Made by a program: the position numbers and the translations under genes | Notes under the pieces: generated by a model | Database searches by the model: none | Told to the model about the DNA's origin: nothing | What the model saw: only the letters and a program-made list of their open reading frames with translations | Shown: positions 7,465 to 50,174 of the stretch, piece by piece | Position numbering within the stretch: the stretch's first letter is position 1 | Layout: every line of letters begins with the position of its first letter | Origin: Methanocaldococcus sp. 28A | GTDB taxonomy: Archaea; AGJL01; Methanococci; Methanococcales; Methanocaldococcaceae | Reading direction: 5' to 3' (one strand) | Assembly: GCA_049852185.1 (NCBI GenBank) | Contig: CP187540.1 | Length of the DNA stretch: 64,000 bases

Positions 7465-8005
7465 AAAATTTTTTAAATTCTTCAAAAGCTCTTTTTCTAT
7501 GGGATATTTTACTCTTTTCTTCTGTAGTCATCTCTGCAAAAGTCCTCTCTTCTCCTTCAGGAATAAAAATACTATCATAAGCAAATCCATATCCTTTACT
7601 TCTTATTTCTTCTGAAACTCTCCCTCTTATAATACCTTTAAATAATTTAACTCCATTTTCATCACAGTAGCCAATAACTGTTTTAAAATAGGCATTTCTA
7701 TTATCCTTATCTTCTAAAAGTTTTAAAATTCCTTCATTACCTATAGTTTCTTGAACAAACTTTGAATATGTTCCAGGAAAACCATTTAAAGCTTCAACAA
7801 AAAACCCGCTATCTTCAACAATAACTGGCTTTTTTATTTTTTCATAAACATATTTTGACCCAAATTCTGCAACTTCTTCTAATGTTCCCTGAATTTCAGG
7901 ATATTCTATATTTATTTGCTCAATCTCAATATTTTTTAAATCTTTTAAAATAATATTTGCTTCTTTAATTTTATTTGGATTTCCAGTAGCAAAATAGATT
8001 TTCAT
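7448..8005 (-). CDS. rdgB: dITP/XTP pyrophosphatase (HAM1 family)
   Basis: [20 protein letters not shown] and KISHR motifs. Confidence 0.96.
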
Positions 8006-23675: not shown

Positions 23676-24656
23676 GTGATAGTCATGTTTGATTTAGAAA
23701 CAGAAAGAGTTATAAAAGAAATTGAAAATTTAAATAAAAAGAAACCAAAAGTAGTTTTTCAAGCTCCAGAAGGTTTAAAATTATCTGTTGAAAAAGAAAT
23801 TGAAAAAATTAAAAGATATTTTAAAGAGAAGGGAAAAGAAATTGAGATATATCTATGGGGAAATACTTGCTTTGGTGCGTGTGATTTAATAGATAGTCAT
23901 GTCAAAAACCTAAATATTGATTTAATTATACATTACGGGCATGAAAAATTAAGCTATGCAAAGCCAGAGATTAAAACACTCTTTATTCCTGCCTATCATT
24001 TATTTGATAAAGATGAAGAAGAGAAAATTTTGAATGATATAAAAGAATTTATAGAAAAACATGAAAATGAAGGAAAAAAGGTAAGTTTAGCAACAACCAT
24101 ACAATATAAAAAACTTTTAAAGGATTTCAATCCAAGTATAATCTTAGGTTGCAGAGGGGAAGTTAAAGAAGGGGATGTTATATTATTTATAGGAACTGGG
24201 AGGTTTCATCCCCTAATGCTTGCTTACAAATACCAAAAAGAGGTTTTTATATACAATCCTGTATCTAAATGCTTTGATAGGATATATGAAGAAGAGATTA
24301 ACAAGTTTATTAAAAAGAGAATTTCAGCAATATCTAAATTAATTCTAAATATGCCAAAAAAAGTAGGGGTTGTTTTATCAACAAAAAAAGGACAATTTAG
24401 AAAAAAGATTTTTGATGAGATTATAAAATTATTAGAAAAAAACAATATCAACTATATCTCAATAATTGTAGATAACATCTCTCCAGATATTTTATTCTAT
24501 GATGTTGATTGCTATATAATAGTTGCATGTCCAAGGGTTGTGTTAGATGACTATATATTATACAAAAAACCAATTTATACTCCAGAAGAATTCAAACTCT
24601 TCATAGAAAATAGCTTTGAATATAAGTTTGATGAAATTAAAGAAAGTGATTTTTAA
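23676..24656 (+). CDS. dph2: Diphthamide biosynthesis enzyme Dph2
   Basis: QAPEGLK, CFGACD, ILGC and VACPR motifs. Confidence 0.93.
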   Translation: MIVMFDLETERVIKEIENLNKKKPKVVFQAPEGLKLSVEKEIEKIKRYFKEKGKEIEIYLWGNTCFGACDLIDSHVKNLNIDLIIHYGHEKLSYAKPEIKTLFIPAYHLFDKDEEEKILNDIKEFIEKHENEGKKVSLATTIQYKKLLKDFNPSIILGCRGEVKEGDVILFIGTGRFHPLMLAYKYQKEVFIYNPVSKCFDRIYEEEINKFIKKRISAISKLILNMPKKVGVVLSTKKGQFRKKIFDEIIKLLEKNNINYISIIVDNISPDILFYDVDCYIIVACPRVVLDDYILYKKPIYTPEEFKLFIENSFEYKFDEIKESDF

Positions 24657-24679
24657 GTTTCCATCCTTGTTTTAATAAA

Positions 24680-24787
24680 CCCATAGAGGGGGCAAAGCCC
24701 CCTCTATTGGTATACTCCCCGCACCATAGGGCTTCGCCCTATTGGTATACCCGGGATGCATTGCCTCGCTTCGCTTGGCAATGCCTC
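24680..24787. repeat. GC-rich tandem hairpin cassette in the array trailer
   Basis: Hairpins ATAGAGGGGGC-aaa-GCCCCCTCTAT, ATAGGGC-ttc-GCCCTAT and GCATTGCC..GGCAATGC. Confidence 0.75.
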
Positions 24788-24937
24788 TTAATAAATGCTA
24801 TTAAAAAACAGTTTCCATCCTTGTTTTAATGGACTAACGATTCAAACGGGACGACAGGTAAATATATATATTGATTTAAATGAGTTTCCATCCTTATTTT
24901 AATGGACTACTTATTCAAACTTGAACATGGTGATATT

Positions 24938-25234
24938 ATGAATAAAACAATTAAGTTAGTTATATTTATATTTTTGTGGATAATGGTATTAATGTTAATT
25001 TCGGTTATTGGAGTAATATACGATAATAATATTCATATATTACTATTATTGGCGGTATGTTTTTGGCTTTGGATAATTTTTGGGATATATTTAGTAATGA
25101 AATGGTTGTATAAATCTGGGTTGATATGGATTATATTGCTTGTAATTTTATCAGCAATATTTCCATTATTTGGATTAATTATAATTTTAGTGTTGATATT
25201 ATATTCTATATTATCATCAGATGGGGGAGTCTAA
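24938..25234 (+). CDS. 98-aa hydrophobic multi-TM protein encoded inside the CRISPR array
   Basis: GGTGA SD at 24929-24933, ATG at 24938, intact frame, 3-4 hydrophobic segments. Confidence 0.7.
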   Translation: MNKTIKLVIFIFLWIMVLMLISVIGVIYDNNIHILLLLAVCFWLWIIFGIYLVMKWLYKSGLIWIILLVILSAIFPLFGLIIILVLILYSILSSDGGV

Positions 25235-25958
25235 TGATTGATTTGTGTGATGAGAAAAATTTATAATTTTTGTTTTTGATTGCAATTTTATTTATTTGTT
25301 TGGTTTGTATTTAGTTTCCATCCTTATTTTAATGGACTAACGATTCAAACCGGAGATATAGATATATCTAAAGAAGATTCTATATTAGATATAAGTTTCC
25401 ATCCTTATTTTAATGGACTAACGATTCAAACTAGGCGATAAAGTTATTGTTGGAAATTCTGATGAATAGTTTCCATCCTTATTTTAATGGACTAACGATT
25501 CAAACATTATACAGAGATTATAAAGATGCAATAAATTTCACAAATGAAAGTTTCCATCCTTATTTTAATGGACTAACGATTCAAACTTATTCCAGATATA
25601 AAATTTAAGGATTTGGAAAATTGGTTTCCATCCTTATTTTAATGGACTAACGATTCAAACACTCCCCTAACGCCGATAATAACGAACCGAGAGAGAGTTT
25701 CCATCCTTATTTTAATGGACTAACGATTCAAACTGTCTATAAAACCTAAGTATTTCCTCATAATAGCCAGTTTCCATCCTTATTTTAATGGACTAACGAT
25801 TCAAACGTATCCAGATTCCATAAAAATAATGATTACGAGAGACGAATGTTTCCATCCTTATTTTAATGGACTAACGATTCAAACAAGCTTATAATAATAA
25901 CGAATTAGGACACAATAACGAGTTTCCATCCTTATTTTAATGGACTAACGATTCAAAC

Positions 25959-26400
25959 CCTACCAACTATTACCTATTTAATACACAAACTCCTATATAA
26001 ATCTTTCTTTTTAACATCGATTTTTCTGACTGCCCAATTATTGAAACCTTTATAAGAGTAAGAAAGATTGTGCAAACTCTTTATAAATAAAATGCACAAC
26101 CATAAACAAAAATCTCAATAATCAGACATTATTTTATATAAAATAAATCTTATTTATCTATAAAATCTACACAATAAAAACAAATAACAAAAATCTCTAA
26201 AAAATCTAAATTTTAATCAGAAAAAATTAGTAATACTTTTTATCAATTTTCTAGTACCAAAATTAAGGCAGGGGTATATAAAAGCAAGAAAGTAAAATTA
26301 ATATTTCTAATGCCTAAATTAAGTTTTTTAATAAATAACAAAATACACTTTGTCCTTATAAAAGTTTATTTTATTTTGCACAAAACTACAATTAACCAGA
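25959..26400 (-). promoter_or_regulatory. Leader of CRISPR array 1
   Basis: AT-rich non-coding stretch; minus strand AAAGAAAGA-TTTATATA about 36 nt before the first repeat. Confidence 0.75.
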
Positions 26401-26476
26401 ATAAATAAAAATAAATATCAAATATTTAAATTTTAACTCAAAAATTTTATATCCACAAAGCAAAACTTAAATATTT

Positions 26477-26773
26477 TTAACAGAATGTCCTATTTGTTGC
26501 TGGTATGCAAAGAGTTTCATTACAGTTTGGACATGTTATAGTAACTTTATCTTTTTCATAGTATGCTTTAAATGGTTTTTTACAATATGGGCAGAAATAT
26601 ATCCTTCCACCAGTTTCTTTACACTCCCCAACTTCCCCAACTGTTGGATATCTTTCAAAAGTAATTTTACTTTCTTTATTTTGGTATTTAAAAAATTTTT
26701 CAACTAAATTTAAGTAAATATTAACTGCAACTTCATTTACACAATCTTTTCCACAGTATGGACAATTATACAT
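26477..26773 (-). CDS. Small Cys-rich zinc-finger protein
   Basis: CPYC, CPYC and CPNC motifs; GAGGTGA SD. Confidence 0.8.
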   Translation of the reverse strand: MYNCPYCGKDCVNEVAVNIYLNLVEKFFKYQNKESKITFERYPTVGEVGECKETGGRIYFCPYCKKPFKAYYEKDKVTITCPNCNETLCIPATNRTFC

Positions 26774-49927: not shown

Positions 49928-50174
49928 ATTAAAATAAGACCGATTCGGTATGGAAACATATTTCATTTCTTCCTCTTCTTTTTTTTTTCTTTTATTAAAA
50001 TAAGACCGATTCGGTATGGAAACTTATTTCGTATGCCACATATAAGGCAATCAACCCGTTAATATTACATTAAAATAAGACCGATTCGGTATGGAAACAT
50101 CACAATATTCAACAATGCATACTTTTTAACAATAATGAACTACAATTAAAATAAGACCGATTCGGTATGGAAAC
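49928..50174 (+). CRISPR. CRISPR array 2: four 30-nt repeats, three spacers (36, 45, 46 nt)
   Basis: ATTAAAATAAGACCGATTCGGTATGGAAAC at 49928, 49994, 50069 and 50145. Confidence 0.96.

Follow-up and report, generated by a model that had tools for sequence, protein, structure and literature searches.

A small membrane-protein gene in an oversized spacer slot of a Methanocaldococcus CRISPR array

One spacer slot in a CRISPR array of Methanocaldococcus sp. 28A holds 393 nucleotides (nt) that include an intact reading frame for a predicted membrane protein. The array lies in a stretch of 64,000 nt of contig CP187540.1 (assembly GCA_049852185.1), called the window here; positions without a prefix refer to it. 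We read the 393 nt as a pseudo-spacer that bears a gene: DNA of foreign or accessory origin, captured as a fragment together with a passenger gene. We give this reading a probability of roughly 55%. A full 37-nt repeat stands at either end of the insert, and its leader side continues in regular units, as capture into a single slot would leave them. A comparable slot in a second species breaks off inside a P-loop gene, which is what fragment capture predicts, and the failure of the insert to find a relative in any collection fits an unsampled mobile source.

The slot and the gene it holds

The genome is closed, with a chromosome (C1) of 1.546 Mb at 29.7% G+C and a second contig (C2) of 10.4 kb, and its estimated completeness is 99.94%. 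A repeat search finds 11 copies of the 37-nt repeat in the window, between 24811 and 25958, with at most 3 mismatches, where 0 are expected (100 shuffles). The oversized slot, 24921-25313, lies between full repeats at 24884-24920 and 25314-25350, whereas the remaining nine gaps of this array measure 36-44 nt and other gaps overall range over 28-51 nt; search and gap counts both bear out the 393-nt gap described in the initial annotation. The features of the slot and of the array around it are as follows.

24811-24847, minus strand: repeat R1, one mismatch, a G variant present in other arrays of the genome too
24848-24883, minus strand: ordinary 36-nt spacer between R1 and R2, holding an AT-rich, TATA-like run at 24860-24872
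24884-24920, minus strand: repeat R2, three clustered mismatches at repeat positions 27-29
24921-25313, plus strand: the 393-nt insert, read here as a pseudo-spacer, 47% T and 4.8% C, single-copy in the genome
24929-24934, plus strand: Shine-Dalgarno-like GGTGAT, 3 nt ahead of the ATG
24938-25234, plus strand: intact open reading frame (ORF) P0001, 98 amino acids (aa), about three hydrophobic segments by hydropathy
25234-25266, plus strand: stub of 10 codons that starts in a TAATG overlap and stops at 25264-25266
25267-25277, plus strand: two T5 runs, 33-43 nt past the stop codon of the ORF and terminator-like for it
25314-25958, minus strand: regular leader-proximal part, nine identical repeats and eight spacers of 36-44 nt
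25959-26310, minus strand: conserved leader, about 350 nt long and right of the last repeat, shared with four of the genome's own arrays

Several lines of evidence indicate that the precursor CRISPR RNA (pre-crRNA) is read from right to left. The leader is 98.3% identical to that of the array at C1:744252 and 86-90% identical to those of three further arrays of the genome, and it is also conserved beside arrays of other genomes. It contains a TTTATATA box (TATA box) on the minus strand at 26001-25994, 35 nt ahead of the first repeat. The leader-distal terminal repeat has a degenerate outer end in three of the 37-nt family's four other arrays, and the Rfam family CRISPR-DR7 matches the window array on the minus strand, with E values of 4e-4 to 0.014 that fall under the gathering score. 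Given this direction, the ORF is antisense to the pre-crRNA, as the initial annotation had it, and the insert sits near the old, leader-distal end of the array.

The window array is a CRISPR array of the 37-nt repeat family served by Cas6b and type I-B. It lies at C1:184.7-186.5 kb, about 660 kb away from the type I-B genes cas1, cas4, cas8b, cas7, cas5 and cas3 (C1 ~848.7-858 kb), and the genome also encodes Csm1/Cas10, with csm1 at 104 kb.

The ribosome-binding site and the intact, multi-transmembrane ORF of the initial annotation both stand up to inspection. GGTGAT would be complementary to the 3' end of 16S rRNA, and the lysines of P0001 are found at the N-terminus and in the second loop, a placement to which the positive-inside rule for membrane proteins is relevant. 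When the 393 nt were shuffled, an ORF of at least 98 codons appeared in 3 of 5000 mononucleotide shuffles and in 13 of 5000 Markov-1 shuffles. The codon log-likelihood of P0001 is -3.67, against -3.61 +/- 0.12 for pieces of long genes, and is the best of the six frames, with a small margin over the next-best frame (0.16, against 0.61 +/- 0.20 for true gene pieces); its synonymous codon use, -0.87 against -0.79 +/- 0.11, falls in the range of genes. On these sequence statistics we read P0001 as a real but orphan coding sequence.

The signals around the ORF are mixed. The TATA-like stretch at 24963-24975, raised earlier as a possible promoter, lies inside the ORF and must be discarded in that role; the TATA-like run at 24860-24872 in the preceding spacer is a possible cryptic promoter. 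The TAATG overlap described as a coupled next start is real, but the gene supposed to begin there ends after 10 codons, and the stub may be what is left of a downstream gene's start, or chance; in G005, described below, a real P-loop gene begins at the corresponding position. Archaeal transcription terminates at oligo-T; T5 runs occur within P0001 as well, so the terminator signal at 25267-25277 is a weak one. The A5 run at 25255-25259 reads as T5 on the pre-crRNA strand. As to R2, its three mismatches fall at the repeat positions that vary most across arrays and species, and the R2 variant was found in no other genome searched. The changes delete an in-frame TAA of the canonical repeat, and an ATG at 24902 then opens a 110-aa form of the protein; this longer frame with its start inside R2 may be a coincidence.

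Searches for relatives of the 98-aa protein were uniformly negative. None was found in Pfam or PHROGs; in 40 genomes of the order, the small replicon C2 included; in a word-indexed set of 5.8 billion proteins (limited to 53-172 aa); in 1.84 billion representatives; or in metagenome contigs, plasmids or phages (tblastn). The homologue check proposed in the initial annotation, as carried out against plasmids and phages, came back empty. Weak matches in two genomes (G024 and G034) turned out to be shadow frames antisense to a gene of 340-440 aa. The ESM Atlas contains the P0001 sequence letter for letter, which has no bearing on its expression; the best feature score there (0.83) and the structure matches, which are below threshold, are leads only.

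At the DNA level, no spacer of the 37-nt family in the same genome matches the insert, and no match to it appeared among those listed for 60 relatives, 128 weaker ones aside. Nor are there signs of an insertion sequence, a miniature inverted-repeat transposable element or another mobile element: the insert is single-copy, it has no ORF of transposase size, and inspection by eye only revealed no terminal inverted repeats.

A parallel slot in a second species

Oversized slots are rare. In the genome of Methanocaldococcus sp. 28A the 37-nt family has five arrays with 43 gaps, of which only one is oversized, and none of the 75 gaps in ten arrays of a second family, with a 30-nt repeat, is oversized; counted by array, a gene-bearing slot is found in 1 of 15. 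Likewise, none was found in 22 arrays from five other genomes (G013, G002, G028, G001 and G032), whose gaps reach 64 nt at most. Such rarity fits an accident better than a design. The arrays of the 37-nt family elsewhere yielded one more oversized slot, at G005:C116, in a genome of the same genus.

The G005 array adjoins a cas6b gene (Pfam Cas6b_N/C) and consists of a hairpin, a truncated repeat, hairpins, a repeat, a 451-nt slot, a repeat, a spacer, a repeat and the leader, in that order; its distal module and that of the window array align. The slot contains an AT-rich, promoter-like stretch, the hexamer GGTGAT, a 100-aa hydrophobic ORF (P0002) and the start of a Walker-A (P-loop) gene that is cut after 22 codons by the next repeat. 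The same GGTGAT stands ahead of both slot ORFs, which have the same orientation, and the codon statistics of P0002 are similar to those of P0001. The repeats that flank the G005 slot differ from each other.

Judged by its sequence relatives, P0002 is a real gene, a member of a small and patchily distributed family. Relatives outside arrays are found in G028 (E 2.5e-10), G019, G012, G001 and G020, following a gene for a McrBC component in G028 and a TM2-like gene in G019, G012 and G001. The members, at L036:1468-1797 (minus strand), L037:1474-1773, L038:1477-1797, L039:1474-1785, L040:1462-1776 (minus strand) and L005:1116-1418, are Methanococcales membrane proteins of 99-109 aa with invariant Lys, Trp, Pro and Arg residues; the family has no Pfam match and occurs once in a CRISPR array. 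Kinship between P0001 and P0002 is unproven: BLASTP gives an E value of 0.12, 30 of 99 circular shifts score as high, and hhalign of P0001 against the profile of the P0002 family gives a probability of 0.5% (E 0.11). The 22-aa P-loop stub matches only generic N-termini of P-loop proteins of 170-195 aa, with E values of at least 0.03, and no donor DNA for the G005 insert was matched in 40 genomes. Exact copies of P0001, of its 110-aa form and of the G005 protein are absent from a collection of 15 billion sequences.

The viral contigs of IMG/VR, scanned for the repeat motif and for the P0002 family and not for P0001, contained no member of that family. The repeat-core scan gave 63 loci, 5 of them with full-length repeat-like sequence at 7-9 mismatches, and two of those 5 are mini-arrays of two repeats on viral contigs (L118:627-734 and L119:13334-13442) at 8 mismatches to the window repeat; these belong to a broader repeat family.

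Proposed capture and the competing explanations

According to the reading that we favor, foreign or accessory DNA would have filled exactly one spacer slot in the leader-distal part of a type I-B (Cas6b) array. The fragment would have carried a ribosome-binding site, the 98 codons and a T-rich 3' end, with the native promoter left behind, since the start codon lies 17 nt from the repeat and leaves no room for one. Capture that is precise to the slot but arbitrary in its breakpoints is the most likely route, and two forms of it can be envisaged: Cas1-Cas2 may have integrated an over-long prespacer, or a double crossover between two neighboring spacers and their protospacers in a donor may have replaced spacer-repeat-spacer with a donor segment. 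Because the flanking repeats are not identical, the evidence leans somewhat against a fresh Cas1-Cas2 duplication and toward recombination among pre-existing units. Once in place, the passenger gene would be crossed in antisense by transcription from the leader; Cas6b would cut in the flanking repeats to give an intermediate of about 430 nt, and after trimming the guide would comprise only the first 35-45 nt beside the 5' tag, complementary to 25275-25313 and so beyond the T-runs of the ORF.

Two of the explanations put forward in the initial annotation can be judged at this point. Oversized capture by Cas1-Cas2 is viable, although the accompanying suggestion that the array acts as a gene-acquisition platform is unsupported, with one such array among 15 and one other found. 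Recombination with a mini-array carried by a mobile element is disfavored, since the breakpoint in G005, at codon 22 of the P-loop gene, lies inside a gene and cannot be a donor-borne repeat.

Some of the observations sit poorly with capture. No donor sequence for the insert was found in the searches above, and foreign origin is inferred from that absence. The flanking repeats differ (at three positions in R2, and in the G005 pair too), whereas fresh integration by Cas1-Cas2 should duplicate one repeat. Two independent slots both hold an intact small multi-transmembrane gene, in the same orientation and near the distal end, a coincidence that hints at selection or shared history. Finally, either youth or constraint is needed for the ORF to be intact where the array is supposedly old.

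The closest precedent is SiL-E1, an element of about 2 kb with five ORFs between two repeats of CRISPR_2 in Sulfolobus islandicus LAL14/1. As presented in the main account (Jaubert et al. 2013, PMC3718332), it is strain-specific and 82% identical to known pING1-like plasmids, and its flanking repeats are identical; the proposed routes are faulty processing of a prespacer, or recombination with a plasmid through matching spacers. SiL-E1 was the only described case that we found in the literature on oversized spacers and genes within arrays, supplements aside. As far as that account goes, the two loci agree in that gene-bearing DNA much longer than a spacer lies exactly between two repeats with more units beyond, in leaving no room for scars of illegitimate recombination, and in the candidate routes. 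They differ in that the window insert measures 393 nt and holds a single complete orphan gene, that its flanking repeats differ at three positions, that it has no plasmid or virus match (plasmids, phages, metagenome contigs, protein sets and C2) and that it has a parallel in a second species.

The surroundings of the array include three further features.

24657-26466, minus strand: the entire CRISPR cassette, made up of distal patchwork, array, leader and a further 160 nt or so, a precise insertion of about 1.8 kb
24657-24676, minus strand: truncated repeat, the first 20 nt of the plus-strand repeat, immediately after the stop codon of the dph2-like gene
24677-24722 and 24723-24792, no strand assigned: GC-rich hairpin elements, which with AT-rich filler make up a 134-nt pseudo-gap as far as the repeat at 24811

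The cassette sits between two convergent genes, one Dph2-like (stop at 24656; Pfam Diphthamide_syn) and the other encoding a Zn-ribbon protein (stop at 26477). In five relatives (G011, G015, G006, G008 and G007) it is absent, the flanks being contiguous with 0-80 nt in place of 1.8 kb; in G011 the flanks are 94.8 and 94.2% identical, the convergent genes abut, and comparison reveals a candidate TTAA/TAA duplication at the junction. As for the comparison of related strains that had been recommended, the five relatives lack the entire array, which hides the pre-insertion state of the 393-nt slot. Precise insertion relative to G011 and G015 was seen for all three arrays tested (window 24657-26466, C1:743871-744956 and C1:1540622-1541286); both of those genomes are without the 37-nt repeat family altogether, and the repeat core (17-mer, at most 1 mismatch) is absent from 8 of 10 further genomes of the genus, G011 included. 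By these sequence comparisons, array-plus-leader units behave as discrete cassettes.

The leader-distal 660 nt run, in order, through the truncated repeat, the hairpins, the G-variant repeat, one spacer, R2 and the insert. The same junction, of a repeat truncated after 20 nt with the first hairpin, recurs at array ends in G016 (three arrays) and G005 (two arrays). The hairpin elements, of about 45-70 nt, have 11 and 18 BLAST matches in their own genome (self included), one copy being at C1:744917-744960, and copies at 83-97% identity are found across most genomes of the genus.

Such an arrangement could have arisen at a junction of two array lineages: an ordinary gene at the distal end of one array would have been sandwiched by a fragment of another, either at this locus or in a donor genome, and the composite would have moved as a whole. 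We consider this unlikely. In its favor, the three arrays tested are precise insertions, and the family is missing from most of the further genomes, even from the 95%-identical G011; the repeat variants on the two sides of the slot differ in the window and in G005 alike; the genes next to the distal ends of the four other arrays of the family point toward the array, as P0001 does; and the distal 260 nt are pieced together from truncated repeat and dispersed hairpins. Against it, the supposed left-hand mini-array has no leader of its own, and an ORF that begins 17 nt past R2 has not kept a native promoter region. The repeat at 25314 is perfect, where the terminal repeats of three of four other arrays are degenerate, and the right junction in G005 cuts the P-loop gene exactly at the start of the repeat. 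As the composite, leader included, is one insertion absent from the five relatives, it was not built around a resident gene of this locus, and the simple form of the alternative raised in the initial annotation, an ordinary chromosomal gene between two independent arrays, does not describe it.

The third of the initial explanations was an addiction or immunity module. In the form considered here, P0001 would be a membrane toxin or superinfection-exclusion protein, silenced in antisense from the CRISPR leader or by Csm cleavage, with tag/anti-tag pairing preventing activation of Cas10; its role would be to stabilize the array, or to act when CRISPR transcription fails. We regard this as improbable. 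It draws on the intact, coding-like ORF antisense to the pre-crRNA, on the type I-B genes and Csm1/Cas10 of the genome, and, as weak support, on the second species, where another small membrane gene is placed and oriented alike. On the other side, the arrangement is confined to two arrays among those examined, the G005 slot contains a truncated neighbor gene, as an accident would give, and the locus is some 660 kb from the cas genes. After trimming, a type III guide would presumably pair past the T-runs of the ORF, outside its coding part.

Type I toxin-antitoxin systems pair a small hydrophobic toxin with an antisense RNA, and the known toxins are mostly shorter than 60 aa with one transmembrane segment. 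The window locus likewise has a gene for a small hydrophobic protein under a convergent antisense transcript, but here the antisense RNA would be the pre-crRNA, and the protein, at 98 aa with about three segments, is longer than and unlike the known type I toxins.

A further comparison is with the CRISPR-repressed toxin-antitoxin modules CreTA and CrePA (PMC9458426, PMC8501985, 10.1101/2024.01.05.574328). As these accounts summarize them, the CreA pseudo-spacer partly matches the toxin promoter beside a protospacer-adjacent motif (PAM), the module lies within the cas operon, and CreP proteins are known CRISPR-repressed, phage-derived protein toxins of about 100 aa (10.1101/2024.01.05.574328), which lends the idea of a module some support. 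On the features given there, the window locus is similar in having two degenerate repeats and a spacer-like stretch beside an ORF of about 100 aa, a probable mobile origin and a type I genome; it is unlike them in that the ORF is inside an array judged to be working and distant from the cas genes, and its product is a predicted membrane protein and not a KilAC domain. For the R1-R2 spacer, no PAM-adjacent partial target lies near the ORF: when the guide's first 19 nt were searched in both senses, allowing at most 3 mismatches, the only matches were the spacer itself and scattered sites of low complexity, none of them in or near the locus. With neither a promoter target and PAM nor a place in the cas operon, a design of the CreTA/CrePA type was rejected for this locus.

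A more committed version of the same idea, which we hold to be quite improbable, is that distal arrays of the Methanocaldococcus type keep a guard module on purpose, in which leader-driven pre-crRNA, aided by Csm cleavage that tag/anti-tag pairing keeps non-autoimmune, would silence an exclusion protein or membrane toxin. A cell that lost transcription of the array, or deleted part of it through the repeats, would then be punished, and the module could travel with the array cassettes.

That the insert codes for nothing, being junk such as filler or a decayed element, with the 98-codon ORF a chance frame in T-rich DNA, is very improbable. A plus strand so rich in T and poor in C does favor hydrophobic pseudo-proteins, P0001 lacks homologues in the collections searched, and its margin over the next-best frame is small; but frames of this length are rare in shuffles, GGTGAT stands at the proper distance, synonymous codons are in the gene range, lysines are placed at the N-terminus and in the second loop, and the G005 counterpart scores alike and belongs to a real family. 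A repeat-mediated mis-join that put the fragment into the array during assembly is scarcely credible, mis-assembly being common in repeat arrays but the genome here being closed in two contigs, the insert single-copy with both ends abutting repeats, and the same layout present in an independent assembly of another species.

CRISPR context and significance of the slot

Some further observations concern the CRISPR loci and small replicon of this genome. The second repeat family, with a repeat of 30 nt, has 10 arrays with 85 repeats and gaps of 28-50 nt, at window 49928-50174 and nine other sites; its repeat ends in the same eight bases as the minus strand of the 37-nt repeat, and from this sequence identity the two families may share a 5' tag. 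An element of about 42 nt at window 26350-26393, outside the conserved leader, has about 100 chromosomal copies on both strands at 83-97% identity. An identical 47-nt spacer is found in two arrays at separate loci (C1:847995-848041 and 1541109-1541155), which points to segmental copying between arrays as far as the sequences can tell.

The spacer at C1:744824-744859 matches the second contig at 33 of 36 positions, at C2:3875-3910 and 7771-7806. All three mismatches fall at the spacer's 5' (leader-proximal) end, which is probably the PAM-proximal end, and they may explain its coexistence with C2. The ORFs of C2 recur at an offset of 3896, as though a unit of about 3.9 kb had been assembled in tandem about 2.7 times.

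Gene-bearing pseudo-spacers are rare and of a kind already described; what is new here is a complete orphan membrane gene together with a parallel in a second species. If the capture reading is correct, the window locus adds to a very short list, with a gene that is complete and, from its sequence, looks expressible. It would mean that slots can take up hundreds of bases whose breakpoints are arbitrary, a point that concerns the strictness of the Cas1-Cas2 ruler in vivo or, alternatively, the frequency with which recombination between spacers and protospacers rewrites arrays. Should the protein instead be a controlled toxin or exclusion factor, which is unlikely on present evidence, the locus would represent a new coupling of CRISPR arrays to addiction modules, and a guard module would be a protein-toxin, array-internal counterpart of CreTA. 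In either case the locus is well suited to asking how Cas6b and the type I-B and III-A complexes treat a repeat-to-repeat unit of 430 nt, and whether antisense transcription of an array silences a gene embedded in it.

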